From the NCBI GenBank assembly GCA_040005235.1, contig JBDTZG010000006.1:22203-86202 (forward strand): a DNA stretch of 64,000 nucleotides, written 5' to 3'. A program made the position numbers and the translations under genes. The notes below the pieces were generated by a model, which was given only the letters and a program-made list of their open reading frames with translations, did no database searches and was not told where the DNA came from. Source of the DNA: Acidobacteriota bacterium (GTDB lineage Bacteria; Acidobacteriota; Thermoanaerobaculia; Multivoradales; UBA5704). Of this stretch, positions 11,647-28,036 are shown in pieces; positions within the stretch are counted from its first letter, which is position 1; each line of letters opens with the position of its first letter.

Positions 11647-11704
11647 CACAGGATTTCGGTCAAATCGGCCCCGGTTCGAGCCGATTTGGCGCAGGCGTCA
11701 CGAA

Positions 11705-11749: not shown

Positions 11750-11763
11750 ACTTCAGGCGGCCC

Positions 11764-12438: not shown

Positions 12439-12679
12439 GGGGAACGGCTCCCTTTGTCTTCCGTTGGGGCGTAGACCCGCCGCTTCGTGGATGTTTACGA
12501 AGCAGAGGTGCGCTGCGCGGAAAGTACACGCCGAGCCCGGGAGCCCGGGTCGGCGCCGCGAAATGGTAAGGAAAGCTTCTGCTAGTTCTGTGCCAGAACG
12601 CCCAGGGTTCGAACCGCCGTGCGGTTCAACCGGGGGTCGATCGAGGTGCCGGCGGCGGCACCTAGGCGAGGGGCGGTGT

Positions 12680-12946
12680 TCAGGTGACCGGATCCTTTCG
12701 CCGCTGAGCGCGGCGCCGATCGTAATCCTCGGAGTGGATTCCGAGAGTGGAGACTTTGTTGCGCAACGTGTTGCGATGGACGCCCAGCGAGCGAGCGGAC
12801 CGGCAGAAGTTGCCAGAGTTGGACTGTAGCGAGGCAAGGATGAACTGACGTTCGAACTCCCGCCGCGCCTGCTCCAGAGTTACGCCGCGACGAACCAGCT
12901 CATCGACGATGAGAAACAGACGCCCGTTCAAGTTCTGGTCGGCCAA
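12680..12946 (-). CDS. Fis-type helix-turn-helix DNA-binding protein
   Basis: 88 aa with a C-terminal Fis-type HTH (SARSLGVHRNTLRNKV). Confidence 0.55.
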   Translation of the reverse strand: MADQNLNGRLFLIVDELVRRGVTLEQARREFERQFILASLQSNSGNFCRSARSLGVHRNTLRNKVSTLGIHSEDYDRRRAQRRKDPVT

Positions 12947-13246
12947 GGTGAAATCTCCGCTGAGAAAAGGGGCTCGAAAGCGGGCTCTAGAATACCACAG
13001 CCCTTCCGTCTACCCAAGATGAAAACGTCGTTCGCAGCGCCACCCGACCGCTCTGCAAAGTTCCTGCGAGAGTCGGGGATCGCCCCCTGAAGTCGCCGAT
13101 CTCGCGGTTCCGGGGGGAGTGTTCTAGACTGTCGCCCTTCGGCAGAGTCCTGGCCCGAGATGTGCTCGACTAAGTCGAGGCCGTTCGGAGCCCTGGGTTT
13201 TGCCCTGACCGACCGAGCTAAAACCCGAAAAACACAGGAGATCGCG

Positions 13247-13519
13247 ATGGCCGAGAGAAAGCCTAACGAGCAGTTCATGAAGCCGCTGCAGCCCTCTGAG
13301 GCGCTCGCTGCGGTCGTCGGTAGCGCCCCGCTGCCGCGCACCGAGGTGACCAAGAAGGTCTGGGAGTACATCAAGAAGCACAATCTGCAGGACCCGGCCA
13401 ACAAGCGCAACATCGTTGCCGACGACAAGCTGAAGGCGGTTTTCGCGGGCAAGGGCACGGTCACGATGTTCGAGATGACCAAGCTGATCAACGCCCACCT
13501 CAAGGACCCGTCGAAGTAG
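13247..13519 (+). CDS. SWIB/MDM2 domain protein
   Basis: 90 aa starting MAERKPNEQFMKP, with AGGAG 6 nt upstream. TEVTKKVWEYIKKHNLQDPANKRNIVADDKLKAVFAG is a typical SWIB domain. Confidence 0.7.
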   Translation: MAERKPNEQFMKPLQPSEALAAVVGSAPLPRTEVTKKVWEYIKKHNLQDPANKRNIVADDKLKAVFAGKGTVTMFEMTKLINAHLKDPSK

Positions 13520-13614
13520 CAGGCGCCGCGCGGAGCGGCGCGCCCGTGGGCAGCGGGCGCCGCCGCTTCGACCAGGCGGTCCGCCGCCTCGCGCAATTCT
13601 GAGATCTCCGCACT

Positions 13615-14586
13615 GTGGTTACCCACGTCCCGATCGGCACGCCGCTCCTTTGGGGCGGATTTTTTCTCCTCATCTTCGCCCTGCTCGCGCTCGATCTCGG
13701 CGTGTTCAACCGCCGCGAGCATCGGGTCGGCCTGACCGAGGCGATCGTTTGGAGCGTCGTCTGGACGCTCGTGGCGTTGGCATTCAACGTTTGGGTCTAC
13801 CTGCGTTTCGGTCACACTCCGGGGGTAGAGTTCCTGACCGCCTACGTGATCGAACGCTCCTTGAGTTTCGACAACATCTTCGTCTTCATCGTGGTCTTCA
13901 ACTACTTCGCGGTGCCGGACGAGCTTCATCACCGGGTGCTGTTCTGGGGCATCCTCGGCGCTCTCGTCGCCCGCGGCCTGTTCATCGGTCTGGGGACCGC
14001 GCTGCTCGCGAAATTCTCCTGGTTGATCTACCTGTTCGGCGCCTTCCTGATCTACACCGGCTGGAAGGTCCTGCGCGAGAAAGAAACGAAAATCGAGCCG
14101 GAGCGGAACCCGGTGGTCAAGCTATTCCGCCGTCTGTTCCGGATCACCGAGAGCTATCGGGGCAAGAACTTCTGGTCGCGCGAAAACGGCTTGCTCTACG
14201 CGACCCCGCTCCTGCTCGTCCTGGTGGTGATCGAGGCAAGCGACATCCTGTTCGCGGTCGATTCGATTCCCGCCGTCTTCGGCGTCACGCGCGATTCGTT
14301 CATCGCCTTCACCTCGAACATCTTCGCCATTCTGGGGCTGCGCGCGCTGTACTTCCTGCTCGCCGGTCTGATGCACAAATTCGGCTATCTGAGCTACGGC
14401 CTGGGCTTGGTGTTGATCTTCATCGGCGCCAAGATGGTCCTTCATCCGTGGATCGAAATCCCGATCGAGCTATCGCTCGGCTTGGTGCTCGTCCTGCTCG
14501 CCGGCTCGGTCGCCATCTCGCTGCTCCGTCCGCCCAAAGCGCCGGAAGAAGTCGTGGCCGCAACCTCCGAGTCGTCCGCCGACTAG
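13615..14586 (+). CDS. TerC family integral membrane protein
   Basis: GTG start. Multiple TM helices with TerC motifs (LSFDNIFVF, FAVDSIPAVFGVT). 323 aa. Confidence 0.8.
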   Translation: MVTHVPIGTPLLWGGFFLLIFALLALDLGVFNRREHRVGLTEAIVWSVVWTLVALAFNVWVYLRFGHTPGVEFLTAYVIERSLSFDNIFVFIVVFNYFAVPDELHHRVLFWGILGALVARGLFIGLGTALLAKFSWLIYLFGAFLIYTGWKVLREKETKIEPERNPVVKLFRRLFRITESYRGKNFWSRENGLLYATPLLLVLVVIEASDILFAVDSIPAVFGVTRDSFIAFTSNIFAILGLRALYFLLAGLMHKFGYLSYGLGLVLIFIGAKMVLHPWIEIPIELSLGLVLVLLAGSVAISLLRPPKAPEEVVAATSESSAD

Positions 14587-14626
14587 AGAACCCGCACTTC
14601 GCCGATCGCTTCCGGAGGTCCGCTCG

Positions 14627-16339
14627 ATGAAACGGTTTGCCGCCTTTCTCCTTCTCGTCGCCCTGCTCGTCGCGAGCGGGCCATTGCCGGCGGCCTTCGA
14701 GCCCGCCCCGATCGGCCGCGGGGGAGCGGTCTCCGCAAACGATCGCCGTGCCTCGGCGGTGGGGCTGGAAGTCTTAAAGAGCGGCGGTAACGCGGTCGAC
14801 GCCTCGATCGCGACGGCGTTGGCCCTCGCCGTGGTCTTCCCCGAAGCGGGCAACCTGGCGGGCGGTGGTTTCGCAGTCCTGCGCCAGAAGGGCACTTTTG
14901 CCGCGCTCGATTTTCGCGAGGTGGCGCCGGCTGCGGCGAGCCTCGGCATGTACCTCGACGAGAAAGGCGAACCGAGGAAAGGCGCCTCGACCCTCGGACC
15001 GCTCGCCACAGGAACCCCCGGCTCGCCCGCCGGGCTCTGGGAGCTGCACGAAAAGTACGGCAAGCTCCCCTGGGCGCGCCTGGTCGATCCGGCCGAGCGC
15101 CTGGCGCGCGAAGGGTTCACGGTCGATCGTCACCTTCACGAACGGCTGATCCATCCCGACCAGCAGCGACTCGCGCAGTTTCCCGAGACGCAAAGCTTCT
15201 GGCGCGCGGGGACCGAGCCGCTGCCGGTCGGCACGTTGATCCAACAGCCGGCGCTCGCCAAGACCCTCGCCGCCTATCGGGATCACGGGCCGGAGGCCAT
15301 CACCGGCGGCGCCGTAGCCGCGGCGGTCGAAGCGGCGTCAAAGCGGCACGGCGGAGTGCTCACAGCGGCGGATCTTGCCGCCTATCGGCCCACCTGGCGC
15401 GAGCCGCTCCGCTTTGCCGCGTTCGGCTGGCAACTCGCGACGATGCCCTTGCCCTCCTCCGGCGGCATGATCCTCGGCGAGACGTTCGGCCAGCTGGAGC
15501 GCCTCTCGTGGCCCAAGCTGCCGCGCTTCGGCGCCGATCGCGCCCATCTGCTTGCTGAGGCGCTCCGCCGTTCGTTCGCCGACCGCTACCTGCTGGGCGA
15601 TCCCAAGACCACCCGTGCCGGCGCGGCCCAGCTGCTCGATCCCGCCTGGCTCGACCGCCGCGCCGCCTCGATCGACCGCGTAAAGGCGTCGCCCTCGAAA
15701 GGGATCTTCCCCTGGCCGGGCGACGCGCCGCCGGCCGAAAAGCCGGAGACCACGAATATTTCGGTCATCGACGCGGACGGCAACCTGATCGCGCTCACCA
15801 CGACGCTGAACGACCTGTTCGGCTGCGGCCTCTACGTTCCCGAGATCGGTTTTTTGAACAACGAGATGGACGACTTCGCGACCGCGCCGGGACGGCCGAA
15901 CCTGTTCGGCCTGATCCAGGGCGAGGCCAACGCCGTGGCGCCGGGCAAGAAGATGCTCTCCTCGATGGCGCCGACGATCGCCTGGCGCGCGACGCCCGCG
16001 GGCGAAGAGGCCATCGCCATCGGTGGCCGCGGCGGTTCGCGGATTCCCACCCATGTCGCACAGGTGCTGCTGAATGTGATGGTCGACGGCGATTCGCTCG
16101 CCGAGGCGCTCGGCCGGCCCCGCCTGCACCATCAATGGCTGCCCGATCAGATCGAGGTCGAGCCGGACACGTTCTCGCCCGAAACCCGCGCCGAGCTGGA
16201 ACGGCGCGGGCATGTCATTCAGCCGGCGATCCAGAGCGCAAGGGTGTTCGCGATCCACCGTCTGCCCGACGGCCGGATCGAAGCCGCGGGCGACCCGCGC
16301 GGCCCGAGCGGCGCTGCGGTGGTCGATCCGGAACGTTGA
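14627..16339 (+). CDS. ggt: Gamma-glutamyltranspeptidase
   Basis: Signal peptide. Catalytic Thr context TTNISVIDADGN and GGT small-subunit motifs. 570 aa. Confidence 0.85.
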   Translation: MKRFAAFLLLVALLVASGPLPAAFEPAPIGRGGAVSANDRRASAVGLEVLKSGGNAVDASIATALALAVVFPEAGNLAGGGFAVLRQKGTFAALDFREVAPAAASLGMYLDEKGEPRKGASTLGPLATGTPGSPAGLWELHEKYGKLPWARLVDPAERLAREGFTVDRHLHERLIHPDQQRLAQFPETQSFWRAGTEPLPVGTLIQQPALAKTLAAYRDHGPEAITGGAVAAAVEAASKRHGGVLTAADLAAYRPTWREPLRFAAFGWQLATMPLPSSGGMILGETFGQLERLSWPKLPRFGADRAHLLAEALRRSFADRYLLGDPKTTRAGAAQLLDPAWLDRRAASIDRVKASPSKGIFPWPGDAPPAEKPETTNISVIDADGNLIALTTTLNDLFGCGLYVPEIGFLNNEMDDFATAPGRPNLFGLIQGEANAVAPGKKMLSSMAPTIAWRATPAGEEAIAIGGRGGSRIPTHVAQVLLNVMVDGDSLAEALGRPRLHHQWLPDQIEVEPDTFSPETRAELERRGHVIQPAIQSARVFAIHRLPDGRIEAAGDPRGPSGAAVVDPER

Positions 16340-16424
16340 GCCGGCAGTGATTTCTTTCCCTGCCGTGATCCGCGGAGATTCCAGGTAAACTCCGGCCGTT
16401 TTTCCAGCGAGGGGAGTTAAGAGC

Positions 16425-17564
16425 ATGGTCCAGGTGCTGGTGCCCAAAGAGCGCCGATCCGGCGAAACGCGTGTCGCCGCGACGCCCGAGACGGTCAAGA
16501 AAATGGTCAAGGAAGGGCTCGCCGTGGCGGTCGAGCGGGGAGCCGGCGAGGCCGCGTATTTTTCCGACGCGGATTACGAAGCGGCGGGCGCCACCCTCTC
16601 CGACGCCCCCGACTGGTCCGCCGCCGACGTGGTCTTGAAAGTCGCGCCGTTGGCCGAAAACGAAACGCCGAAATCCGGCGCGCTCGCGATCGGCCTGTTC
16701 GCCCCGCACGGTCCCCTCGACCGCGTCCGCCGCTTGGTCGAGGGAAACGTCACCACCCTCTCGATGGAGCTGGTGCCGCGCATCACCCGCGCTCAAGGAA
16801 TGGACGCCCTCTCCTCTCAAGCGTCGATCGCCGGCTACAAAGCGGTTCTGCTCGCCGCAGTCCATCTGCCGAAATACCTGCCCCTCCTGATGACCGCCGC
16901 CGGCACGATCAAACCGGCCAAAATCGTCATCATGGGCGCCGGAGTGGCGGGCCTCCAGGCGATCGGCACGGCGCGCCGCCTAGGCGCGGTGGTCGAAGTC
17001 TCGGACGTCCGGCCCGAGGTCAAAGAACAGGTCGAATCGCTCGGCGCCCGCTTCATCGAGCTGCCGATGCTCGAACAGGAAAGTGGAGCGGGAACCGGCG
17101 GCTACGCCCGCCAGATGGGCGAAGACTTCCTCATCCGCCAGCGCGAAATCGTCCGCGAACGTCTGAAGACGGCGGACGCTGCGATCACCACCGCCCTGGT
17201 CCCCGGCCGGAAAGCCCCCACCCTCCTGACCCGCGAAATGGTCGAAGCCATGCGCCCCGGTTCCGTGATTATCGACCTCGCAGTCGAACAAGGCGGCAAC
17301 TGCGAGCTGTCGCAAGCCGACCAGGAGGTCGTCCACCAGGGCGTCCGCATCCTGGGCCCGTCGAACCTCCCCGCCACCCTGCCCCACGACGCGAGCACCC
17401 TCTACGCGAGAAACGTCCTCGCCCTCTTGCTCCACGTGACGAAGAAGGGCGAGATGGCTCTGGATCCAGAGGAGGAGATCGTCAAAGCTACGCTCCTCAC
17501 CCACGCCGGAACCGTCCTGCACGGCCCGACGGCGGAGCGGTTGGCGAGCGAAGCCGGGGCCTGA
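16425..17564 (+). CDS. pntAA: NAD(P) transhydrogenase alpha subunit, soluble part (PntAA)
   Basis: N-terminus MVQVLVPKERRSGETRVAATPETVKKMVKEGL and the Rossmann motif IVIMGAGVAGLQA match PntAA rather than alanine dehydrogenase. 379 aa. No pntAB or pntB lies downstream. Confidence 0.7.
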   Translation: MVQVLVPKERRSGETRVAATPETVKKMVKEGLAVAVERGAGEAAYFSDADYEAAGATLSDAPDWSAADVVLKVAPLAENETPKSGALAIGLFAPHGPLDRVRRLVEGNVTTLSMELVPRITRAQGMDALSSQASIAGYKAVLLAAVHLPKYLPLLMTAAGTIKPAKIVIMGAGVAGLQAIGTARRLGAVVEVSDVRPEVKEQVESLGARFIELPMLEQESGAGTGGYARQMGEDFLIRQREIVRERLKTADAAITTALVPGRKAPTLLTREMVEAMRPGSVIIDLAVEQGGNCELSQADQEVVHQGVRILGPSNLPATLPHDASTLYARNVLALLLHVTKKGEMALDPEEEIVKATLLTHAGTVLHGPTAERLASEAGA

Positions 17565-17804
17565 TCGGGCGCGGCGGAGTACCCGGCGCACGCGCCCACC
17601 CGATTTGTGAGCTTCCGGACCGACTGGCCGAATTCCCCGACCCCGGCTTGCGACGCAACGCAGCGCTGCACAAACGCTGCGCACCTGAATCCGAGGTGCG
17701 CTTGGTGAATGCATTGGGCCCGCGCGTTCGATCATCGGGACGCAAGCTCGAATCGTCGGTACTCGCGTCCGCCGGGGCGCTCCGCGGGAGCTGAAACGAG
17801 GAGA

Positions 17805-18674
17805 TTACGGCTCGGCCAGAACCTCGGTGGCGGAAGAAGCCACTGCGGCCCGTCGCAACCAGCGGCCCAGCTGCTCACGGTCCTGACACCCCAGAATCTT
17901 CTCCTGTTGCGCTTCGCTCGCCTCGACCTCGCGTGCCGCCAAAACTTCGAGAATCGATCGGGCGACTCCATCGGCCCGGCCTTCCTCTCGGCCTTCCACC
18001 TTGCCCGCAGCTTTCGCAGAAGCTTCTCGCTTCAGAATCACGGGGTTCCCTTTGGCGACCAGCGCCTCGGCCACCGCGTTGTCGGCGATGGCGGCATCGA
18101 GCAGCGCAGCGACCTTGAGCGGAGTCGCCAAGCAGTGATCCTCAATATTTGCCCCCACCTCCAGCCGGCGCCAGGTACGCTCCTCGGGAGACCACTCGCC
18201 GACTTCGCCGTTCTTGACCCATACGGCGAAGATCCTCCGCACCCCGCGACGGTGCATGCGCTCGGCCTTCTCGGTCGCGAGTTTCTCGCTCTGCTTCGAA
18301 ACGATCTCGAACGCGATCTCCTCCAGGTGGCGTCGCCCGGTCGCCGGGTCCGTTCCCTCCCGGCGGACGCAGGTGTCGGACGCAAAGTCTGAGTCCACGC
18401 CATACCGGGTGATCAGGTCGGTCGAAGCGCGGTATCCGGAGGCGACATGTGCCCGGAGCACGTAGTCGAGCTCGGTCTGCTGATCGGCGTGGGGCGCCTC
18501 CGCCGGAAACGCCTCCATCCGCCGTCCGCCGATGATCTCGTCCCGGGTGACCTCCGGCTCGACCAGATGATCGTCGACGTTCGGAAACGAGCCGCGGCCG
18601 GGCAAACGCATCGCCGAGCCCGACCCATCCGGTCCGGGCGCCTTGAAGCTGTAGGCCCTGCGGTTCTCGTCCAT
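17805..18674 (-). CDS. Uma2-family (DUF820) endonuclease fused to a DUF4351-like C-terminal domain
   Basis: Uma2 core (EEIAFEIVSKQSE...GVRRIFAVW) followed by KVEGREEGRADGVARSILEVLAAR...QLGRWL, which resembles the DUF4351 tail of Rpn-type nucleases. 289 aa. Confidence 0.6.
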   Translation of the reverse strand: MDENRRAYSFKAPGPDGSGSAMRLPGRGSFPNVDDHLVEPEVTRDEIIGGRRMEAFPAEAPHADQQTELDYVLRAHVASGYRASTDLITRYGVDSDFASDTCVRREGTDPATGRRHLEEIAFEIVSKQSEKLATEKAERMHRRGVRRIFAVWVKNGEVGEWSPEERTWRRLEVGANIEDHCLATPLKVAALLDAAIADNAVAEALVAKGNPVILKREASAKAAGKVEGREEGRADGVARSILEVLAAREVEASEAQQEKILGCQDREQLGRWLRRAAVASSATEVLAEP

Positions 18675-18970
18675 CCGTCGAATGATAACCGACTGCCGAA
18701 ATCCCGCCTCGGTTGGTCCCCGGCCGCCATCCGCGCTGCCGCCGAAAGAGGGTACTTTACCCGCTCCCTATCAGAGCGCCCACGAAGCCGCCGAGAGTTG
18801 CCGAGTCGGGTCCTCAAAAGGCTGCGTGACGCCGACAAAGTCGAGAGCCTCGGCCCTCCGATGGCGGTAAGGAAGGGCGGCATGAACCCAAGATGACCCT
18901 TTCTTGGCGCCTTCTTCGCGTTTGGAATCAATGGGATGAAGACCCAGCAACTCGGCGTTGAAGCTCGCTC

Positions 18971-18999
18971 TTGACAGGGCTCGTGATCTTTTCGATACT
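18971..18999 (+). promoter_or_regulatory. Sigma70-like promoter (TTGACA-17 nt-GATACT) facing the low-GC island
   Basis: Exact TTGACA at 18971-18976, a 17-nt spacer, then GATACT at 18994-18999. It lies about 210-260 bp upstream of the island's first ORF. Confidence 0.35.
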
Positions 19000-19209
19000 A
19001 CGCGCCACCCAGAAAGTCTTATGGCCTAAACAGGGTACTTGTCCCGCTGGATGCTTTTGAGGCACCATTGAGTAAAGAGCTGTGCGCCGCCGCCCGCCGC
19101 TTCCGGGCCTAGCCAGGTTGCCCCCAGCTCTCGCAAATAGCGGTTCAGGCGAACAGTCTGGACCATTACCCGGACAGGGGGTTCGCCCCACGGTGGGCGA
19201 GGCCGGCCC

Positions 19210-19956
19210 ATGTCCTTAACCCGCGGCAACTATTGTTGCCTAATTACGGTGGTCCCAATGGTTCAAAAGAAGCTCTTGGCCTGTTTCGGCCTTGCTGTCG
19301 GCATTCTGTTCGCGGTTCCCCCTGATGTACAAGGCGAGTTTTTCGGCATACCTCTCTCCGACACCCTATTCACCTTTGAGGTCAAGGTTCCTGGCTCCGA
19401 GTGCATCAGCGTACGCGACTCGAAAAGTTTCATCGACAAGCTATTGGGAAGTAATGATCAGGCGCCAGCGAAAATCAAGAATTGCCCCCAAGTTGCAACC
19501 CGCGAAGGAACGTTATTCCATATCCAAGACACGACCAATGGCTATTGGTACGGCTTCATAGTTGTCCGAGAAGCCAAAGGCGGGGTGTCGGTTTCTCGAT
19601 TTAGCCTCACCCAGGATCGGATCGCTGGGCAAGCTGTTGTTCAAGATGCTGACAAACCACAATTGGTCCAGGTCGGCGGCGAAGCCTCGTTTCCATTCTC
19701 CAAGAAACCGGCGGCCCCCAAGATCAGGCTTGAATTGCTTGGAGAGGAAGAGGGTTCCTTTCCCAATTCTCCACCCTATACCGATCCGATTGACTCCGAT
19801 AATCATGCCCAAGCAGAATTCCTTAGACTCATATACGGAGACCCAAGCGCATCGATTTGCTGCGTCGGATGCGGTCCGATTCGAGTTTGTGGCGATAGCG
19901 TAAATCTCGGTTGCGGCGCATGCGGTGGTGGCGGTGGCGGGTATGGTCAAATCTAA
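19210..19956 (+). CDS. Secreted protein with a Cys/Gly-rich C-terminal tail (low-GC island gene 1); probable true start 19258
   Basis: Signal peptide MVQKKLLACFGLAVGILFAVPPDVQG. Tail ICCVGCGPIRVCGDSVNLGCGACGGGGGGYGQI. GC is about 50%, against about 68% in the flanks. Confidence 0.5.
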   Translation: MSLTRGNYCCLITVVPMVQKKLLACFGLAVGILFAVPPDVQGEFFGIPLSDTLFTFEVKVPGSECISVRDSKSFIDKLLGSNDQAPAKIKNCPQVATREGTLFHIQDTTNGYWYGFIVVREAKGGVSVSRFSLTQDRIAGQAVVQDADKPQLVQVGGEASFPFSKKPAAPKIRLELLGEEEGSFPNSPPYTDPIDSDNHAQAEFLRLIYGDPSASICCVGCGPIRVCGDSVNLGCGACGGGGGGYGQI

Positions 19957-20032
19957 ATGGGTGGATTTCGCCGGAAAATTCATCTTGTAGGCAGCTAGAC
20001 CCTTTCCCCCAAGTCTGGGCAGGAGATGAACT

Positions 20033-21361
20033 TTGTCTGTCCGAGGACGTCCTTTTTTCCTCGCAGGTACACTCTGTCTACTTTGGGTGGTCGTAATTCT
20101 AAGTTGCCATTCAACGAGGCTGGTCCTTGCCGAGCCAACAATTGTCAACGCCGGAATGGGCGCTCCCCAGGACCTGTGGTTTTCTCCCGACGGATCACTG
20201 GTCGCTGCCTATTCGAAGGGGCTTGCGCTTACGATTGTCAAATATGACCCAAGGACGGCAATGCCGCCGAAGGTAAAGCTGCTGGACTTCAGGGTTCTTG
20301 GAAAAGAACTGGGCTCCGTCACTGGACTTACCACGAATTTGCCTCTTCCGGCGTTAGGATCAGACGTTGTTGGGCGGTCGAATGGTGGACGCGGGACCAA
20401 GCTTATTTATTCAATTTCGGCAGACGCCAAGACCATTGCGTGGGCTGATGGCTCTACGGTAAAGGTGAGGGCGACTCAAGACTTCACCGGTCGCATGGGC
20501 GCTCAGGGCATGGTGACAGCCGACGAGACCGTCTTTTCGGTAGTACTGACCGCAGAAGGTATGGTCAGTGTCCTTGGACCCAGCGGAACGCTTACGACCT
20601 ATAGCAGTGGTACGCAGGAGAGACTGCTTCCGTACATAAAGCTCCCGACCGGAAGATGGAAGCTCAGCTCGCGAGGTCCTCGAATTGCGGCTGCAGATTT
20701 TGCAGGAGGTAAAGCAGGACTGGTGGTCCTTGATCCGCCTTCGATGTTAGGCAAAGAATCTAGGTCTCCGGCGATTATCTTTCCAGGGGAAGAAATGGCC
20801 GAAGGAAGTCAAGTGGTGTTGGCTGCCAGCAAACGACTCCTAATCGGAGGCAGAGACGGATTGATAACAAGAGTTACATACAGCAAAGAAGGCCGAGCCA
20901 AGGCAAGCTTGCTTCTGCCGACCGGCGGAGGAGTGCGAGCAATTGCGCCGCTTGGAGGAAGTGACTTTGCCGTCGGAGGTGATTTCTCTGGAGTTTTTTT
21001 AGTCTCTCGGTTTCAGTTGGTTCAGTCGATTGCGGCTGGTCCGGCTGGGGTTCGACGAATCGCTGTCAACGGCGACTACATCGCTATTGCAACTGATCGT
21101 GAGCTTTTGGTCATGAAACGCACTCTTTCAATCAGGCTGGACGAATCCGGGAAATATTGGATCGGTTTGATGCTGTCGATAATTGGCGTCCTTGGATTTT
21201 ATCAAACCTGCCTAGGCGAGCGAGGAACCAATGGGCTTCCCAACCGGGTGGACACACTCGTTGAGCTCGGTGCCGAAACGATTTCGCCAAGCCTTACCCC
21301 CCACACCCCAACCGAACCCGCTTCTTCTCCGCCCGGTGTTCCGCCAGCGACAGCTCCTTGA
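20033..21361 (+). CDS. Membrane-anchored 7-bladed beta-propeller protein (low-GC island gene 2)
   Basis: N-terminal signal/TM, repeated WD40/PQQ-like blades, and a C-terminal TM (YWIGLMLSIIGVLGFYQ). Low GC. The 3' end runs about 67 nt into the convergent high-GC neighbour, so the terminal residues may be a read-through artefact. Confidence 0.5.
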   Translation: MSVRGRPFFLAGTLCLLWVVVILSCHSTRLVLAEPTIVNAGMGAPQDLWFSPDGSLVAAYSKGLALTIVKYDPRTAMPPKVKLLDFRVLGKELGSVTGLTTNLPLPALGSDVVGRSNGGRGTKLIYSISADAKTIAWADGSTVKVRATQDFTGRMGAQGMVTADETVFSVVLTAEGMVSVLGPSGTLTTYSSGTQERLLPYIKLPTGRWKLSSRGPRIAAADFAGGKAGLVVLDPPSMLGKESRSPAIIFPGEEMAEGSQVVLAASKRLLIGGRDGLITRVTYSKEGRAKASLLLPTGGGVRAIAPLGGSDFAVGGDFSGVFLVSRFQLVQSIAAGPAGVRRIAVNGDYIAIATDRELLVMKRTLSIRLDESGKYWIGLMLSIIGVLGFYQTCLGERGTNGLPNRVDTLVELGAETISPSLTPHTPTEPASSPPGVPPATAP

Positions 21362-23255
21362 ACGCTGGAAAGTCTGCGATTTCCACAAAGCGCCTTTTCG
21401 TTTCCGCCGTCCGTTCCAAGATCGCCAATCCGTCTTCGAAGCGCACGGTCTGGTGGAAGCTGCCCAGCGCGTTTTCGGTCGCGGTGTCTTGGGGTTCCAG
21501 TTTGCAGGCAGCCTCCGGCAGGCGGAAGCGCCAGATGGTTTTGGCGATGCCGGGGGAGAGGACGACCGGGATGGGGTTCGTGGCCCGATTGTCGAGCACT
21601 CCGGTCGAGGGGGTGGCCGAGAGCGAGGTCGCTTGGAAGGAGCGGGAGGCGTTGCCGAGCAGGCCGGGGATGGTGAGCTGGATCGACGCCGTGGCGTGGG
21701 GGAGACCTTCTCGTTCGGGTTGCCAGCTCAGGCGACCGAGGGTGGCTCCCGGGAACAGTCCGGCGAAGAGGGCGCGCAGGGTGGCGTCGATCTCGTTGGG
21801 CTGCTTGTCCGCTAGGGTTTCGATCATCGAGGCCGCTTGCCAGCCGGAGAGGTCGAGCTTGGCTTGGCCTTTGGCGTCTCCCGTCGGCGGTTCGGCCGTG
21901 GCGACGCTCAGGTCGATCGTCAGGGTACGGGCCTCGCCGACCGGCAGCGTCGGCGTCCGGACAAGCTCGCTCTGTTCCCCTTGGTCGCCGCGGACGACCA
22001 GGGCGTCCTGGTCCTGGTCGTGCGGCGCGAGCCAGACCAGCGAGGAGCCGATCTCTTGGGTCGCGTCGACGAACAGGTAACCTCCAGCGACCGGAGCCCC
22101 AGGCGGTAGGTCGAGACCGGCGACCGGGAGCGCCGCGATCGCGTGGTTGAAATCGAACGGCGAGGGAAAATCGCGGTCGATCCGGCCGAATCGATCTAGG
22201 CGGATCAGCACCGGATAGGCCTCGATGCCGGCCGCGGCGAGCAGATCGACCAGCAGAACCGCCTTGTCCTTGCAGTCGCCGTACTTCTTGCCGATCGCCT
22301 CGGCCGGCGCGTGCGGAATGTAGCCGCCGACTCCGACCTCGATCGCGACGTAGCGGACATCGCGCTGGGCGTAGCGGGCGAGCGCCGCGAGTTTTTGCTG
22401 CCTCGTGGCCGTGGCGCCCAATGCCCGGACCACTCGGTCCGCTTCGGCCCTCACTTCCGGCGCGCCGCGCGGCACGGTTCGGAGCAGGTTCGCCCACCAG
22501 GCGGCGACGCCTTTCCAATCGGGCGCCGGCCCCCAGGCGAAACGCAGGGTCGGCCCCGGATCGGTGGGGGCCGAATCGAGATCGCGGTCGGCGGGCAGGT
22601 CGTGCCCGGTAATGCGAACTCCTCCAGCGATCGGCTCGATCTCCAGGTTGCCGGTCGGACCGGAGACATGGAACCGAAAGCCCGGCCCCGCGCCGTTGAC
22701 TTCGACCGATAGGGCGGCGGTCTTGTCGCGGCCGGGGGAGAGGTCGATCAGGCCGCCGGGAAAGTACGGCTGTTCGACGACCGCCGATTCGACTTCCAGG
22801 GTCGAGCCGACCGGTCCGGCAGGGAAGTTCACGGTGCGGACTTTGACCGCGCTGTGGAGCACCCCGGCCGAGCTGACCTCAGCGGTGTCGAGAGCCTTCT
22901 TGCCCGCTTCGATCACCTTGCCGCCGGGCTGGATCGTCCGGGCGGCGAGTTGCTCGATGTGGGCGTTCTCGTCGTACCCGACGGGGTAGGGGGACCAAGC
23001 GGCGAAGTCCTCCGCCGCTTCGAGCCGGACGCGAATCTTCTCGCTGGTGCGCATCGAGCCGTCCGGGCGCACCTCGGCGACCACCGTTCGTTCGAGTACG
23101 GTCGCGGCACGGGCCGGGTTCCCGCCGAATGATCCGAGCGCCACGAGCGCGCCGGCCGTTCCTATCGTTGCGAGCCGGACGAGCAGGGTGGGCGGAAAAT
23201 TCCGCCGCCGCCCGGCAACCGACCTAGCGACGGACGAGGACGAGAGCCTGTGCAT
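21294..23255 (-). CDS. DUF3857 plus transglutaminase-like domain secreted protein
   Basis: Start at MHRLSSS followed by a signal sequence. Transglutaminase core YGDCKDKAVLLVDLLAAAGIEAYPVLI. 653 aa. Confidence 0.7.
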   Translation of the reverse strand: MHRLSSSSVARSVAGRRRNFPPTLLVRLATIGTAGALVALGSFGGNPARAATVLERTVVAEVRPDGSMRTSEKIRVRLEAAEDFAAWSPYPVGYDENAHIEQLAARTIQPGGKVIEAGKKALDTAEVSSAGVLHSAVKVRTVNFPAGPVGSTLEVESAVVEQPYFPGGLIDLSPGRDKTAALSVEVNGAGPGFRFHVSGPTGNLEIEPIAGGVRITGHDLPADRDLDSAPTDPGPTLRFAWGPAPDWKGVAAWWANLLRTVPRGAPEVRAEADRVVRALGATATRQQKLAALARYAQRDVRYVAIEVGVGGYIPHAPAEAIGKKYGDCKDKAVLLVDLLAAAGIEAYPVLIRLDRFGRIDRDFPSPFDFNHAIAALPVAGLDLPPGAPVAGGYLFVDATQEIGSSLVWLAPHDQDQDALVVRGDQGEQSELVRTPTLPVGEARTLTIDLSVATAEPPTGDAKGQAKLDLSGWQAASMIETLADKQPNEIDATLRALFAGLFPGATLGRLSWQPEREGLPHATASIQLTIPGLLGNASRSFQATSLSATPSTGVLDNRATNPIPVVLSPGIAKTIWRFRLPEAACKLEPQDTATENALGSFHQTVRFEDGLAILERTAETKRRFVEIADFPAFKELSLAEHRAEKKRVRLGCGG

Positions 23256-25176
23256 CGCTTTTGGCCGCCGTCGCGAACAGGTCGCGCGCAAAGTCGCATT
23301 CCTCTCGGCTGGAAAGCTGCTTTTCGCGCACTGCGAACGTGCGGTGGATCGTCGCCTTCCGGCCCGGATCGTCGATCTGAATCGCGAGCGCGAACGCCCC
23401 TGCCGCGCTGTCGCTTTTGGCGGTGCGGGGCGCGGATTCGACATGCCACCCCTCTGGCCAGGCGATCTCGAAATCGACTTGCTCGGTATAGGGGAAATCG
23501 AACAGGATCGGGGAGCGGCGCTGCGCCGTGGAGGCCGAGAACGGTTCCCTCTGCGGTCCGAGCGGCCGGCTCGTGGCGAGCGTCGCCTCATCGCCGAGGG
23601 CGTCGTCTTCCTTTTGGATCATCGTCCAGGTCATCGAGAGACTGCGATCTTCGACCGATTCCTTGGTGGCCACCTCGGTGAAGTCATACCCCTCGAAGTG
23701 CTCGGCGAGCCAGTCGTTCCAGGCCTCGGTGGTTTTCTCCGGCGTTTCGCGCCAACGGAGCTTGGACGTCGCCGAGAGCCCGGAGAGCTCCAGCTTGCCG
23801 GTTCCGGAAAGGCGGCCGCCTGCGCCGACTTGAAGCGTGACGGTCGCTTTTTCGACGTTCTGCTCGGCGGGGCTTTGGGCGAGCACCACCCCTTCCGGTT
23901 TCTTCGGGTCGGGCAGCAGGGCGGCCGTCCCTTCGTAGTCGGCGTCGAGGCGGCCGAAGCCGAGGCGGCGATCGGTCGGATCGAGGTAGACGCGCCCGCC
24001 ATCCTTCGGTCCCAGCTCGACCGCCACCAGCACGCGATCGAACCAAGCGGGGTTGGCGACCTGGGCATCGATCAGGCCGCTGCTTCGCGAGCCCGCCCAG
24101 ACCCGCTTGGCGTCGAGCTTCAGGGCGTCGAGCATGGTTTCGAGCAGCAGCGCTTTTTCCGCCGCCGTGCCGTGTCCGGCGCGCAGGATCGCGTCGGCCG
24201 AAGGCTCCGTCCCGGTGAGGAAGATGCCGGTATTGTCGTCATCGAGCGCGATCTCGTCGCGGACGAAGGTATAGATCGCCGCGGCCCGGTCGCGCGGGCC
24301 GGTTCCCGCCTTCTGGGCCAGGGCCTGCGCCTTCTTACCCGATTCGCCACCGCGGCGACGGGCCTTTTCCCAGGTCTCCTTCAAGAAATCAGAGGTCGCC
24401 GCCCAATTCTCCATCAGCCGCAGGTGGACGGTCCCCTCGTCGAACACGGTCGGTACCAGCATGATCTGGGTCGCGAGATCGGCGAACGGCAGGCCGTATG
24501 GCTCGTCCAGGATCGGCGGCAGATTCTCGGCCCATGCGCGCAGCGTGCGTTTTCCGACGTCGCGCCCCTGTTCGGTCTTCACCCCAGCCCGGAACGGGTC
24601 GCGCATCCAGGTCTGAACTCCGAGCGAGCCGGGGATCAGATAGCGGATCTCGGCCGAGCGGACCGGAATGTCGGACGAGAAGTAAAACGGCTCCAGGTAA
24701 AAGATGTTGTCGAAGCGCAGCTCGTACTCGGCGTCGAGGATCGCGCCCACCTCGACGTTGGGGAAGGCGAGCGAGGTGACGAAGTACTTTCGGCTTTTGG
24801 AGAGCTTGCGCTTAAACTTGGCGTCCTTGGCTAGCTCGACCACTCGACCGTCGGGGAGCACGGTGCGTGCCGTGAGGCTGTAGAGCCGGACGAACGAGGA
24901 ATGGAAGAGCTGGATCTCGCCCCGGTCTTTGCCCTGCTCGGTGAGGATCTTCACCCGCTCGCGCACGATCACGCGGGACGAAATGTCGCTGCTCGCCGGG
25001 TCCATCATGCGGAATTCGGCTTTCCGGAAAAGCACCACGGCGCGGGCGTTCGGCGAGCCGGCCACCTGGGTGAGGACTTTTTCTTCGGCCGAAATCGGCG
25101 GAAATTCAGCCCGCGCTGCGGGCGGCAGGAGCACCAGGAGGCTGAAGACGGGGACGAATAGGGCGATTCGAGACAT
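23224..25176 (-). CDS. DUF3857-domain secreted protein, paralogous partner of the downstream gene
   Basis: Signal peptide MSRIALFVPVFSLLVLLPPAARA. DUF3857/DUF3858-like architecture. 650 aa. Overlaps the downstream gene's start by 32 nt. Confidence 0.6.
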   Translation of the reverse strand: MSRIALFVPVFSLLVLLPPAARAEFPPISAEEKVLTQVAGSPNARAVVLFRKAEFRMMDPASSDISSRVIVRERVKILTEQGKDRGEIQLFHSSFVRLYSLTARTVLPDGRVVELAKDAKFKRKLSKSRKYFVTSLAFPNVEVGAILDAEYELRFDNIFYLEPFYFSSDIPVRSAEIRYLIPGSLGVQTWMRDPFRAGVKTEQGRDVGKRTLRAWAENLPPILDEPYGLPFADLATQIMLVPTVFDEGTVHLRLMENWAATSDFLKETWEKARRRGGESGKKAQALAQKAGTGPRDRAAAIYTFVRDEIALDDDNTGIFLTGTEPSADAILRAGHGTAAEKALLLETMLDALKLDAKRVWAGSRSSGLIDAQVANPAWFDRVLVAVELGPKDGGRVYLDPTDRRLGFGRLDADYEGTAALLPDPKKPEGVVLAQSPAEQNVEKATVTLQVGAGGRLSGTGKLELSGLSATSKLRWRETPEKTTEAWNDWLAEHFEGYDFTEVATKESVEDRSLSMTWTMIQKEDDALGDEATLATSRPLGPQREPFSASTAQRRSPILFDFPYTEQVDFEIAWPEGWHVESAPRTAKSDSAAGAFALAIQIDDPGRKATIHRTFAVREKQLSSREECDFARDLFATAAKSDAQALVLVRR

Positions 25177-25380
25177 CGATCCTCCGAAAATCGGATCAGG
25201 AACGTGCGCGCGTAAGGCTCATGCTAGCAGGCCTCCGCCAACCCCTTGGACACCGTCGCCACGGTTTCGTGGTGAATTGTGACGAAGTCGTCATCCAAAG
25301 CGTCGGGCGCCGCGTAGAGGGTTTGAACAGGCGGACCGAGGCCACCTTCGGAGCCTTTCGGGGGCCGCCGCAGGAACCGG

Positions 25381-26067
25381 GTGGAAGACCAGGAGGTTCA
25401 GGTGCCGCAAGCGCTGCAGGCCGGTCAATGGTTCGGACAGGGGCCGACGGCCGCCGGGAACGGCGGAGCGCTTCGCTCTGGCGTATATTCCGGGCAAACG
25501 TTCGCCACTCGGGAGACCGTCCGCTTGAGCCTCCGTACCGCCGATGCCGACGATTCGGCACTGCTCGCCGCCATCGCGCGAGGCGAGATCAACGCCTTTC
25601 AGGTTTTCTACGATCGCTATGCCGCGCGCGTCACCTCCTACGTGCGGCAGCTGAGCCGCGACCGGGAATCGGTCGAGGACATGGTCCAAGACGTGTTCGT
25701 CGCAGTGTGGAGGAAGGCCGGGAGCTACAGCCCGGAGCGGGGCGACGCGGCGGGCTGGCTCTATACGATGACCCGCAACAAGCTGGTCGACCAGTGGCGT
25801 CGCGTCCGCGAAAAGGCGGTCGAGCTCGACGCCATGCACTCCTGGGAAATGCCGGCGATTGCGCCGCCCGAAGAAGATCTCTACCTGTCCGTCCGCCAGG
25901 CGCTGTTCCAGGTTGCCCCGGATCAGCGCGAGGCGATCGAAATGGCCTATTTCGGCGGCCTCACCTACGAGGAGACGGCGGTTCGTCTCGACCTTCCCGT
26001 GGGCACCTTGAAATCGAGAATTCGCGCCGGTCTGCGCTCTTTGCGCTCGGTGCTGGAAGCGGGGTAA
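25381..26067 (+). CDS. ECF (sigma-70 family group IV) sigma factor; start uncertain (possible TTG near 25531)
   Basis: Region 2 (DMVQDVFVAVWRK) and region 4 (AYFGGLTYEETAVRLDLPVGTLKSRIR). The 50-aa N-terminal extension is unusual for this family. Confidence 0.7.
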   Translation: MEDQEVQVPQALQAGQWFGQGPTAAGNGGALRSGVYSGQTFATRETVRLSLRTADADDSALLAAIARGEINAFQVFYDRYAARVTSYVRQLSRDRESVEDMVQDVFVAVWRKAGSYSPERGDAAGWLYTMTRNKLVDQWRRVREKAVELDAMHSWEMPAIAPPEEDLYLSVRQALFQVAPDQREAIEMAYFGGLTYEETAVRLDLPVGTLKSRIRAGLRSLRSVLEAG

Positions 26068-26071
26068 ATTC

Positions 26072-26728
26072 GTGCATCCACCCGAAGACATCCTCCTTTC
26101 GTTCGTTTCGGGCGAGGCCGATCTCGCCCGGCGGGCGCTGATCGAAGGGCATCTCGACGGTTGCCCCGATTGCCGCGCGTCTATCCGGTCGCTCTCGGTG
26201 CCGGGGGCCCGGTTGTTGGCCGGGATGCCCGGCAAAGCAGCCGATTCGGCCGGCTCCTCCGGACTTTGGGATCGCCTGCGCGCCCGCGTGGCGGAGATCG
26301 GACCGCCGCCGTCGTTCGAAACGTCCCCTTTAGCCCAATATCCAGTGCCGGCCGGGGCGTTGCGCGAGCTCGGCGACCGCAGCGGAGTCGAGCCGCAATG
26401 GCGGTTCGCGGGCACTATAGGGGCCGCGTTCACCATCCTCTCCCGCGACGCCGGGACCGGGGCGATGCTACTTCTCGGCCGGATAAAGCCGGCGAAGTTC
26501 TTTCCCGAGCACCGCCACGCCGGGCTCGAAGAGATTCTGATCCTCCGCGGCGGCTTCGAAGACCAATACGGCGACTTTACGGCCGGCATGTACACGTCGT
26601 ACGAGCCGGGCACCGTCCATCGCCCGTGGATCGACGAGCAGGAGCCCTGCTGGATGCTCAGCCGGCTGGAGAAACCGGTCGAGTTCCTCGGCTGGCGGGG
26701 CGTGGCGCAGCGGATGCTGGGCAACTAG
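26072..26728 (+). CDS. ChrR-family anti-sigma factor (zinc-binding N-domain plus cupin C-domain)
   Basis: GTG start 5 nt after the sigma factor's stop. HLDGCPDCR zinc motif. C-terminal cupin (FFPEHRHAGLEEILILRG). Confidence 0.75.
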   Translation: MHPPEDILLSFVSGEADLARRALIEGHLDGCPDCRASIRSLSVPGARLLAGMPGKAADSAGSSGLWDRLRARVAEIGPPPSFETSPLAQYPVPAGALRELGDRSGVEPQWRFAGTIGAAFTILSRDAGTGAMLLLGRIKPAKFFPEHRHAGLEEILILRGGFEDQYGDFTAGMYTSYEPGTVHRPWIDEQEPCWMLSRLEKPVEFLGWRGVAQRMLGN

Positions 26729-26992
26729 GTCAAAATCTGGCAATAGTTGGACAAGACATCTAGGGTCACTGCTGCGAGCGGCAGGAAGATCGCGGCCGGA
26801 ATCTTCGCAGCTAGGTGCCCGAGTCCCGATTGCAGTGCGACCCGGCGCGATTCGAGATCGTGGCGCGCGGCAAATCCGGGGTGGGCGGTGCTTACGACGC
26901 CTGGCGGCGGCTCCCCGTGCGCCTCAGAGGCGAGAAGTTCGATCCGCGCCACGGGCGGAAAGAGGAGTGAGCAAGCGGGGGCATAGAATCCC

Positions 26993-27400
26993 TTGATCCC
27001 GCTGATGAATTGGATTGTGCTCGGCTTCCTGCCGATCGACCGCATGCGCCAAAGTCGCCATCCGGCCTATGGTGCCGCTTGCGGCCAGCTGCTGCTCGCC
27101 CGGCGCACCGCCTACGAAACCGCCGGAGGGCCGCGATCGCCCGCTTCGTCCATGACGCGCTCAAGCTGGCTCGCAGCTTCCGCGCCGGCAGGCCCCTGGT
27201 CGCTCGCCCTCTCCACTGTCGCCCTAACGGCCGGCTGGGCGGCGCGCTTCGCCGCAGCGATCCGGTTTCGCCAGCCGCTCCTCGGCGCGCTTCTCCACCC
27301 GCTTGGGATCGCCCTCTTCCTCGCGATCCAATGGCACGCCCTCGCCCGCCACTACGTGGGGAAGCCGGCGGTCTGGAAGGGGCGGGCGCTCGCGGGGTAA
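26993..27400 (+). pseudogene. 3' remnant of a family-2 glycosyltransferase gene
   Basis: YGAACGQLLLARRTAYETAGG matches a GT2 motif, and the C-terminal membrane-tail-like LLHPLGIALFLAIQWHALARHYVGKPAVWKGR is present. There is no N-terminal catalytic half upstream, and the neighbouring frame carries the expected continuation, which implies a frameshift. Confidence 0.35.
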
Positions 27401-27410
27401 CCAACTGGTT

Positions 27411-27833
27411 TCAGACACTGCCACGCGGAACGACCCACTCAACGGGCTGACCCGTGACCCTAGCGATCTGATCAAAGTCGGCGTCGTAGTGAAGTACGGT
27501 GAGCCCTGCCGATTCCGCTGCAGCCGCGACGATCAAGTCTGGAATTGGCAGGCGGTGTCTTCCCGTTCGCGCTAGCTCGCCCTGTACCTCGATCGCCCTG
27601 TCGAAGATCTGCTCCGTGAGGAGTACGCTCTCGAAGGCCAGCTTACGGCGCAGCCGAATCCTCTCGTGTTCCTCATGGTTGCGGGCACTGAATAGAACTT
27701 CGAGGTCGACGACCGCGCAGGTGGCGATCTCGCCTGACTCGATCAGCGGCGCGAGGCGCGCGCGAACCGTCGCCAAAGGCATCCGAGCAAGGGCACTCTT
27801 ATCAGCGAGGAACCGAGCCCGCATCAGCGCCAA
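27411..27833 (-). CDS. vapC: PIN-domain toxin VapC
   Basis: 140 aa with PIN acidic residues (D at the N-terminus, E, D...D). Overlaps vapB by 10 nt. Confidence 0.75.
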   Translation of the reverse strand: MALMRARFLADKSALARMPLATVRARLAPLIESGEIATCAVVDLEVLFSARNHEEHERIRLRRKLAFESVLLTEQIFDRAIEVQGELARTGRHRLPIPDLIVAAAAESAGLTVLHYDADFDQIARVTGQPVEWVVPRGSV

Positions 27834-28036
27834 GCTTGCGCCATGATTTGCGGGTCCGCCAAATCCATCCCCTCCATGACCGAGAGGGCGCGAACCTCCT
27901 CACGCCGAGCTACCGCACGCAGGACCTCGCGGAACGCCACTTCGATGGTTTCGCGGACGGTCTTTGTCGATAAAGCATCTCGCGTGGCTGCGAGCAACTC
28001 CTCGTCAATCTCAACGCTCGTCTTTCGGACGGCCAT
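27824..28036 (-). CDS. vapB: VapB-type antitoxin
   Basis: 70 aa. MAVRKTSVEIDEELLAATRDALSTKTVRETIEVAFREVL fits the ribbon-helix-helix/VapB pattern. Immediately upstream of vapC. Confidence 0.65.
   Translation of the reverse strand: MAVRKTSVEIDEELLAATRDALSTKTVRETIEVAFREVLRAVARREEVRALSVMEGMDLADPQIMAQAWR

Follow-up and report, generated by a model that had tools for sequence, protein, structure and literature searches.

A 64-kb stretch of the genome of an Acidobacteriota bacterium (class Thermoanaerobaculia; contig JBDTZG010000006.1), hereafter the window, carries a short islet of low guanine-plus-cytosine (GC) content with two adjacent genes, which we call open reading frame 1 (ORF1) and ORF2. 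The first codes for a probably exported protein with a six-cysteine C-terminal tail, and the second for a predicted membrane protein with a large beta-rich domain. Together they are named here the cassette. Its features are collected in Table 1, and the homologous loci with which it was compared are designated L001 and L003-L015.

Table 1. Features of the cassette and its immediate surroundings, in window coordinates.
Feature	Position	Strand	Description and basis
Low-GC islet	18882..21440	.	2559 bp, 54.4% GC versus 66.3% background; maximal-scoring low-GC segment
Conserved region upstream of ORF1	18893..19257	+	aligns with L006
Sigma-70-like site TTGACA-17-GATACT	18971-18999	+	score 10/12; both hexamers identical in L006
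ORF1, 232 amino acids, predicted beta-rich body and putative six-cysteine C-terminal knot	19258..19956	+	ORF list, homologues, ratio of nonsynonymous to synonymous divergence (dN/dS)
Predicted Sec-type signal peptide MVQKKLLACFGLAVGILFAVPPDVQG	19258..19335	+	basic n-region, hydrophobic core; probable cleavage before EFFGIP, between G26 and E27
Putative mature N-terminus EFFGIPLSDTL, family consensus [EQ]xFxVPxSDxV	19336..19368	+	alignments
Putative C-terminal knot ICCVGCGPIRVCGDSVNLGCGACGGGGGGYGQI	19855..19953	+	cysteine spacing over 65 members
Ribosome-binding site AGGAG	20021..20025	+	7 nt ahead of the ORF2 TTG start (20033), read from the sequence
ORF2, 442 amino acids: transmembrane helix, all-beta domain of ~350 residues, transmembrane helix, short tail	20033..21361	+	ORF list, orthologue, relatives
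Hydrophobic helix 1 (residues 7-25), with Arg residues ahead of it	20051..20107	+	Kyte-Doolittle scan, all 8 members
Predicted extracytoplasmic beta-rich domain with WD40/PD40-like motifs WFSPDGSLVA, LIGGRDGLITRV, AVGGDFSGVFLV	20108..21154	+	
Predicted second transmembrane helix YWIGLMLSIIGVLGFYQTCLG, followed by basic residues	21155..21217	+	sequence scan of family members
Predicted cytoplasmic tail, short, variable, Pro-rich	21218..21358	+	length and sequence differ among relatives

In GC profiles calculated over 300 nt and over 1 kb, the GC fraction falls from 0.64-0.70 to 0.52-0.56 at about 18.8-21.4 kb and recovers at 21300-21450, near the stop of the convergent transglutaminase-like gene, where the initial annotation had placed the recovery. 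The lowest 2-kb interval has a GC of 0.533 against 0.663 +/- 0.019 outside the island (z = -7.0), and every other 1-kb bin of the window has at least 0.606; the islet is the sole such feature there. It is a real, statistically strong feature, with the composition expected of a horizontally acquired island. The drop itself had thus been seen correctly, but its trough is ~53-55% rather than ~50% GC, and its length ~2.5 kb rather than 2.2 kb, with ~375 bp upstream of ORF1 included. GC at third codon positions (GC3) is 0.54 in ORF1 and 0.51 in ORF2, against 0.79-0.83 in the neighbours (pntA, a Uma2-family gene and two DUF3857/transglutaminase-like genes). The left edge of the islet matches the point at which homology to the syntenic locus L006 resumes (18893).

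How strictly do these two genes belong together? ORF1-like and ORF2-like genes were adjacent in 11 of the 11 distinct loci with enough sequence (the window, L001, L003/L005/L006, L004, L007, L008, L011, L012, L013, L014 and L015; L003/L005/L006 is the syntenic locus and was taken as one further case of pairing). In every one of them the ORF2 relative lies directly downstream of its paired ORF1 copy, and the distance between the genes ranges from a 20-nt overlap to 163 nt. The ORF2 relative of L001 (31% identity, E = 5e-46) is accompanied by two tandem ORF1 paralogues; in L004 the ORF2 gene is partial, being ended by the contig edge; in L007, L008, L011, L012, L013, L014 and L015 it was recognized by profile matches. 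Locus L012 has three ORF1-type genes, and a shortened paralogue of ~115 amino acids (L012 9558-9971) has kept the tail. Tandem, orphan and truncated copies of ORF1 thus stand beside a single ORF2 in L001 and L012. All-against-all comparison of the flanks revealed no third gene family common to all loci; the only relatives in common were IS200/Y1-transposase-like genes in L012 and L013.

ORF1 belongs to a rare family. By word-indexed search eight relatives were returned; with HMMER, run exhaustively over 1.84 billion representatives, there were 63 clusters, of which 62 measure 134-252 amino acids. The one large match, P0062 (2192 amino acids), was rejected as a spurious repeat match. Word-indexed searches with ORF2, a profile included, gave only its orthologue, and this family was recovered from gene context. 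All ORF1-family members with a named source come from Acidobacteriota or Thermoanaerobaculia; most members lie on short metagenomic contigs without taxonomy. Neither protein has a curated match in Pfam, NCBIfam, PADLOC or PHROGs, and neither gave anything significant in sequence or profile searches of PDB. When 65 ORF1 relatives and 8 ORF2 relatives were scanned one by one against the curated families, noise alone was obtained for the former and sub-threshold noise for the latter. The same holds for known anti-phage defence systems (PADLOC) and phage families (PHROGs), which none of ORF1, ORF2 and their relatives matched; the DISARM proteins DrmA and DrmB occur as neighbours only, in L001. Collections of plasmids, phages and IMG/VR contained no match to the close or the broad ORF1 subfamily, and we found no literature describing this gene pair. 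The cassette is a strictly paired, self-contained and undescribed two-gene extracytoplasmic module of Thermoanaerobaculia-type bacteria, as had been supposed initially in that neither family was recognized and the pair was regarded as an extracytoplasmic module. It is new by exclusion, since none of the known kinds of system with which we compared it accommodates it; a new mechanism is not thereby demonstrated.

Two different cassettes, located on separate contigs (L005 and L013), are present in one MAG (metagenome-assembled genome) of Thermoanaerobaculia, GCA_035607435.1. Within a lineage the module is thus paralogous or has been gained repeatedly. The two ORF1 copies of this genome are 80% and ~40% identical to ORF1 of the window.

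The locus L006 made it possible to date the cassette relative to its surroundings. The L006 contig is collinear with the window over 9096-29043 (~20 kb) at ~85% nucleotide identity, the cassette block being 83.5% identical, and the cassette occupies the same pntA/transglutaminase junction in L003/L005/L006. The synonymous divergence (dS) between the window and L006 is 0.44 for ORF1 and 0.49 for ORF2, and 0.38-0.50 for the four flanking genes. The shared site and a dS equal to that of the flanks indicate that the cassette was in place before the two lineages split. Thus neither absence from the same site nor a discordant divergence, either of which could betray an island, was seen in these relatives, although no search for an empty site was made. 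Both genes are under purifying selection, because dN/dS against the L006 orthologues is 0.23 for ORF1 and 0.19 for ORF2. The ORF2 orthologue is 83% identical. An annotation artefact is excluded by the dN/dS values together with conservation across about 60 clusters.

The substitution pattern of the cassette differs from that of its flanks. GC at four-fold degenerate sites (GC4) is 0.89-0.93 in the flanks, and 0.50-0.58 in the cassette of the window and 0.55-0.65 in that of L006. We fitted a two-state substitution model to the flanks in these two lineages. Even from an ancestor with A/T at all such sites, the flank regime would leave at most 15.8% of four-fold sites A/T in both genomes, whereas 94 of 302 cassette sites (31%) were observed in this state (P = 3e-11). 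The cassette is therefore not ameliorating at the pace of its host: with an estimated rate of A/T-to-G/C change 4.3-fold lower, and of the reverse change 2-fold higher, than in the flanks, it is near an AT-richer steady state of its own. The same deficit, 10-18 GC points relative to the flanks, recurs in ten distinct high-GC contexts (the low-GC loci named are the window, L001, L003/6, L004, L008, L012, L013, L014 and L015), although these cassettes share only 20-40% protein identity, and a high-GC version was not found among the loci compared. The initial annotation had described a horizontally acquired island, for which native high-GC core-gene versions would have been the refutation. Such versions did not appear, but the description fails on other grounds, namely the same junction in a relative, the dS equal to that of the flanks, the AT-tolerant regime and the family-wide low GC. 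Recent acquisition is largely refuted, while an ancient transfer of the cassette may have taken place.

It is likely that the force which raises GC, whether codon selection or recombination-linked biased conversion, is weak on a rarely recombining and weakly expressed pair. This agrees with an established pattern, the higher AT content of accessory relative to core genomes (PMC5303225). Alternatively, AT-richness could itself be selected, for example through silencing, and this cause is not separable from the former. We read the cassette as an old accessory envelope module retained vertically since the split from the L006 lineage. A low-GC islet need not mean recent transfer, as here a cassette with ~50-60% GC4 has co-diverged with flanks of 90% GC4, and its regime bears on island-prediction methods and on "amelioration clocks".

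We then compared the proteins themselves. ORF1 most likely starts at the ATG 19258 (MVQKK...) and not at 19210, as had been assumed, because in the orthologous locus L006 the equivalent of the 19210 ATG is followed by TCC TAA and meets a stop after one codon. The signal-like N-terminus and the Cys/Gly tail, both described initially, are present and conserved across the family. A hydrophobic N-terminal segment, with the conserved motif 5-14 residues further on, occurs in 55 of 65 family members, and in the alignment of these 65 sequences P32 and S34 of ORF1 are nearly invariant. Altogether the family has five conserved elements: the signal-like N-terminus, [EQ]xFxVPxSDxV, an R-E-G motif, a GxFP motif and the tail. 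Both mature termini are the best conserved parts, and the middle is variable with insertions and deletions. In the AlphaFold2 (AF2) model, whose predicted local distance difference test (pLDDT) score is 62, ORF1 has a mostly-beta body and short C-terminal hairpins; a search for structural neighbours of this model returned none that was informative, and a profile of the isolated tail found no relative in PDB. A PDB match of ORF1 to EtpA (E = 0.008) was rejected because several weak repeat matches together make up its score.

In 52 of the 65 members the cysteines of the tail are spaced C-C-x2-C-x5-C-x7/8-C-x2-C, and a Gly-rich end comes after them. The second and fourth cysteines are jointly missing in 8/65 sequences, and no member lacks just one of the two; the third and fifth are jointly missing in one member. 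This covariation points to a disulfide C2-C4 and lends weak support to C3-C5 and, by elimination, to C1-C6. Because it points to disulfides, an oxidising, extracytoplasmic site is suggested for ORF1, which would be exported by Sec and oxidatively folded.

All eight ORF2 members compared have an N-terminal and a C-terminal hydrophobic helix with flanking basic residues. The terminal helices were thus annotated correctly, but the first resembles an uncleaved signal-anchor and not a signal that is cleaved off, because long basic extensions (20-40 residues) precede it in some relatives; the N-terminus would probably be inside. The two-helix pattern suits an N-in/C-in topology without an output domain, in which the domain between the helices is periplasmic. 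This domain is large enough for about seven blades of a propeller. All weak matches of ORF2 were WD40 or other propeller proteins (Utp13, RACK1, THOC3, PkwA, WDR61, ANAPC4_WD40, Lactonase), and these alignments fall on blade motifs. In the PDB profile search PkwA reached E = 0.0027 and WDR61 E = 0.08, below curated cut-offs; in Pfam one of eight relatives matched ANAPC4_WD40 (E = 0.0065, below cut-off), and ORF2 of the window had no match at E <= 10. The AF2 model, built from a shallow alignment, shows all-beta secondary structure, with a pLDDT of 34 and a predicted template modelling score of 0.31. From these matches a propeller is likely.

At its 3' end ORF2 overlaps tail to tail with the convergent DUF3857/transglutaminase-like gene over 68 nt (21294-21361), as first reported. 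The equivalent overlap in L003 measures 65 nt (5030-5094), and the C-terminal ORF2 residues inside it are invariant between the window and this relative. Low GC extends likewise through the final ~150 nt of the transglutaminase-like gene (to ~21440).

We propose the following tentative scheme. ORF1 would be exported by Sec and fold in the oxidising periplasm into a beta-sandwich-like body, whose C-terminal 33 residues would be locked by three disulfides, probably C1-C6, C2-C4 and C3-C5, which correspond to C201-C222, C202-C211 and C205-C219. ORF2 would be an inner-membrane protein whose two ends lie in the cytoplasm; its WD40-like, propeller-type platform would face the periplasm and have neither an enzymatic nor a signalling output domain. 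The propeller might bind ORF1 by the near-invariant mature N-terminus or by the knot, and ORF2 would thereby hold, present or neutralise ORF1 at the membrane. The low GC would reflect an AT-richer steady state belonging to the cassette and not the scar of a fresh transfer. That the module consists of two proteins acting together outside the cytoplasm, a knot protein bound by a propeller, is the reading we favour, at somewhat less than even confidence for the scheme as a whole.

As to biological role, we have a weak preference, itself more doubtful than the scheme above, for a bacteriocin-like or conflict-type pair, in which an effector would be matched by a keeper or immunity partner in the membrane. 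It is favoured by the tandem, orphan and truncated ORF1 copies beside one ORF2, by multiple cassettes per genome and a patchy distribution, and by the frequent toxin-antitoxin (TA), defence or mobile neighbours. The latter occur in most contexts: a Uma2-family nuclease gene in the window; a HicB-like gene, DISARM DrmA/DrmB and an EACC1-type caspase in L001; DUF433 in L004; HopA1 and APH in L008; CHAT-TPR and Gp49/HTH_37 in L012; and IS200-like genes. What weakens the preference is the lack of a toxin domain and of a secretion system, and the fact that conservation lies at the C-terminal end. A bolder version, which we consider unlikely, would make the cassette a class-restricted envelope system in which a new three-disulfide knot is docked in a membrane-clamped WD40-like propeller, as effector and immunity partner or receptor, forming a novel pair of the bacteriocin-like or envelope-defence type, and which has long been kept AT-rich within genomes of 65-73% GC, for example by low expression or rare recombination.

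Several observations weigh against this interpretation. The pairing C3-C5 comes from one sequence, and the four-cysteine variants represent perhaps one to three independent losses. The propeller fold is drawn from sub-threshold matches and a model of pLDDT 34, and the seven blades proposed initially found no confirmation, as hhalign comparison between segments of ORF2 gave no significant internal repeats (best P = 0.006). Agreement between the ORF1 and ORF2 trees in a mirror-tree test is weak (Spearman 0.31, permutation P = 0.14) and non-significant once a close pair is discounted. Scans of the curated libraries recognized no toxin, enzyme or immunity domain in either protein, and conservation in ORF1 peaks in the tail, at the end where polymorphic toxins are variable. 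No dedicated secretion system was found nearby, so that a Sec substrate in a diderm would stay periplasmic. Finally, L014 and L015 have plainly housekeeping neighbours, and genomes of this kind often contain TA genes in any case.

Other explanations have to be weighed against the same evidence. If the islet had arrived recently from a foreign, low-GC donor and were still unameliorated, then the pairing would be that of a donor operon. The sharp compositional jump, ~12 points in GC and ~30 in GC3, would suit such an origin, as would the rarity and patchiness of the family, the mobile, TA or defence neighbours in several loci, and the flanks of the short contigs L007, L009 and L010, which are near the cassette in GC and could belong to lower-GC hosts. 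However, a relative has the same insertion site with flank dS of ~0.4-0.5 and an equal cassette dS, and A/T four-fold sites stand at twice the maximum of the flank regime. The hallmarks of mobility are also missing: the 64-kb window has no tRNA gene, no integrase or transposase is found among the neighbours of the cassette there (pntA, the Uma2-family gene, the transglutaminase-like genes and GGT), which had been noted from the start, and no att-like or flanking direct repeat pair surrounds the cassette. With no plasmid, phage or IMG/VR matches and all named hosts in Thermoanaerobaculia/Acidobacteriota, this origin is quite unlikely. We rate a little higher, and still as unlikely, the possibility that the pair builds a surface or matrix structure, with ORF1 as a polymerising or adhesive Ig-like subunit whose ends join head to tail, comparable to donor-strand or disulfide-linked fibres such as the Ena pili of Bacillus, with tandem paralogues as major and minor subunits and ORF2 as assembly platform or anchor. 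The conservation of both mature ORF1 termini around a variable middle is what such a subunit would need, the tandem paralogues and the lack of an output or catalytic signature in ORF2 accord with it, and the ORF1 body gave weak repeated matches to inverse autotransporter Ig-like repeats (P0062) and to beta-rich adhesin repeats (EtpA). These matches are individually insignificant, though, the connectors of the Ena type are N-terminal, the paired loss of the second and fourth cysteines argues for intramolecular disulfides, and outer-membrane export components, such as an usher, secretin or sortase, lie beside none of the cassettes.

The tail also admits two chemical readings. ORF1 might be a periplasmic metal or redox protein, docked by ORF2, whose CxxC(G) knuckles bind metal in the manner of a zinc ribbon or rubredoxin, or relay thiol-disulfide exchange. 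The four best-conserved cysteines do form CxxxC...CxxC and with the second cysteine give two CxxC(G) knuckles 13 residues apart, at which AF2 puts short beta-hairpins. Export by Sec to an oxidising compartment nevertheless favours disulfides, the pairwise loss of cysteines fits structural disulfide pairs, and neither a thioredoxin-like or metallochaperone family match nor a PDB relative of the tail motif was found; we regard this reading as improbable. Least probable of all, in our judgement, is that ORF1 is the precursor of a ribosomally synthesized peptide, its tail being a core peptide released by cleavage, perhaps also modified, and yielding a small peptide with an antimicrobial or signalling role, the 170-residue body a carrier or leader, and ORF2 an immunity or processing protein of the producer. 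The tail is kept even in the ~115-residue paralogue of L012, many members have a GGG run just ahead of the first cysteine, and a Cys/Gly-rich C-terminus superficially resembles the precursors of microcin B17 or of the SCIFF type. Against this, a Sec signal is atypical for such precursors, the GGG run is missing in the window's own subfamily, NCBIfam gave no match to ribosomally synthesized and post-translationally modified peptides (RiPPs), and no radical-SAM enzyme, cyclodehydratase, lanthipeptide synthetase or C39-peptidase transporter was seen beside any cassette. The propeller-bound knot protein in an old, vertically retained module therefore stays our preferred explanation.

The region upstream of ORF1 has features of its own. 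Over ~365 bp its conservation relative to L006 is at least that of the coding sequence, with blocks at ~19050-19090 perfectly conserved. The promoter-like site implies a ~260-nt leader before ORF1. A regulatory RNA in this leader was rejected, since it has no Rfam match and its folding energy is ordinary (z = -0.77). On either side of the promoter-like site there is a 25-nt direct repeat, 84% identical (18741-18765 and 19024-19048), which holds the near-palindrome GGGTAC-TT-(T/G)(A/T)CCC (2 matches versus 0.09 expected by chance). Related copies AGAGGGTA(C/T) lie upstream in L006, where the second site has diverged. The repeat may be an operator or the remnant of an element; as an operator-like feature shared by the family it was rejected, since L006 preserves it only in part and the other loci lack it.

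Between pntA and the cassette lies the Uma2-family gene (17805-18674, minus strand), which codes for a putative restriction endonuclease-like protein and is the sole badly conserved piece of the syntenic region (dS 0.86, with 66% amino acid identity along about 100 residues). Its place in the relative (L003 1591-2612 / L006 ~8500-9500) is taken by two ORFs of ~58-60% GC, into which it was rearranged or by which it was replaced. Next to the cassette there seems to be a second variable spot. On the other side, 21294-25176 (minus strand) is occupied by two tandem paralogues with the architecture DUF3857 / transglutaminase-core / DUF3858. The first, called at 765 amino acids, has a long Arg-rich N-terminal extension that is probably not real; its true start would lie near MHRLSSS....

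Among the other loci, the metagenomic contig L001 has, just downstream of the cassette (4810-13581), the genes of DISARM DrmA (1045 bits) and DrmB and then of a 1131-amino-acid caspase, which has an EACC1-type domain and whose gene is low in GC over its first ~1 kb, 51% versus ~70%. The IS200/Y1-transposase-like genes or fragments (HuH motif SNHFHLLL) are found at L012 8305-9225 and, as three copies or fragments, at L013 3465-4082, 6600-7295 and 8722-9342. In these two unrelated loci they lie 0.7-7 kb upstream of the cassette and are 51-59% identical to each other, versus only ~24% for the cassettes. In L012 a minus-strand pair of ORF1-like and ORF2-like genes is headed by a gene (12352-13818, minus strand) for a multi-pass membrane protein of 488 amino acids, which has no family match and is coiled-coil-like over a long middle part; it was not seen in the other loci.

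Two families without a curated relative thus form a strictly paired module under selection in a poorly studied soil phylum, and offer a target in the search for new extracytoplasmic protein-protein systems. The six-cysteine tail is a sharply defined motif without a relative of solved structure, for which covariation already predicts a disulfide map.

How does the cassette compare with known systems? Sorting signals (PEP-CTERM, MYXO-CTERM, GlyGly-CTERM, LPXTG) likewise combine a conserved short C-terminus with a neighbouring membrane-protein gene, but the ORF1 tail ends in glycines and has neither a transmembrane helix nor a basic cluster, and ORF2 matches no sortase, exosortase or rhombosortase in NCBIfam or Pfam. 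RiPP precursors (SCIFF, microcin B17-like, NHLP/Nif11) are set apart by the Sec signal of ORF1 and by the lack of a maturase or C39-peptidase transporter in any context. Zinc-ribbon and rubredoxin-like sites coordinate a metal by four cysteines in two knuckles; two CxxC(G) knuckles are present in the ORF1 tail, for which export and the pairwise loss of cysteines favour disulfides.

Bacteriocin or effector-immunity pairs and polymorphic toxin loci are likewise small, accessory and AT-rich, with a multi-copy exported partner and one membrane partner. The cassette differs from them in having no toxin or immunity domain and no secretion system, and in a C-terminus that is conserved and not variable. 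Three-disulfide mini-domains such as knottins and the defensin-like bacteriocin laterosporulin also have six cysteines within about 30 residues of an exported protein. Cystine knots contain a C2-C5 link, and the ORF1 spacing and predicted C2-C4 pairing fit neither a cystine knot nor the CS-alpha-beta fold; moreover, the ORF1 motif is fused to a body of ~170 residues and has no PDB relative.

In methylamine dehydrogenase (MauB/MauA) a periplasmic seven-bladed heavy subunit is joined by a small disulfide-rich light subunit, a layout analogous to the probable propeller of ORF2 with its putatively exported, disulfide-rich partner. There is no sequence relation, however, and ORF2 is membrane-anchored. 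The signs of a methylamine or aromatic amine dehydrogenase light subunit are also missing, as the ORF1 tail has no tryptophan of the tryptophan tryptophylquinone (TTQ) cofactor and no neighbour resembles mauG, mauD or mauE. ORF2 itself recalls the WD40/PD40 propellers, represented by the bacterial WD40 protein PkwA and by TolB, which is periplasmic. Its motifs hydrophobic-x-F-S-P-D-G-x-L-V-A and G-x-x-D-G-x-I/V-x-V align to the blades of PkwA and WDR61, and ORF2 may belong to this superfamily. It differs in that its domain is clamped by two transmembrane helices and has no TolB-like N-terminal or other partner domain, but this all-beta domain probably serves likewise as a protein-binding platform.

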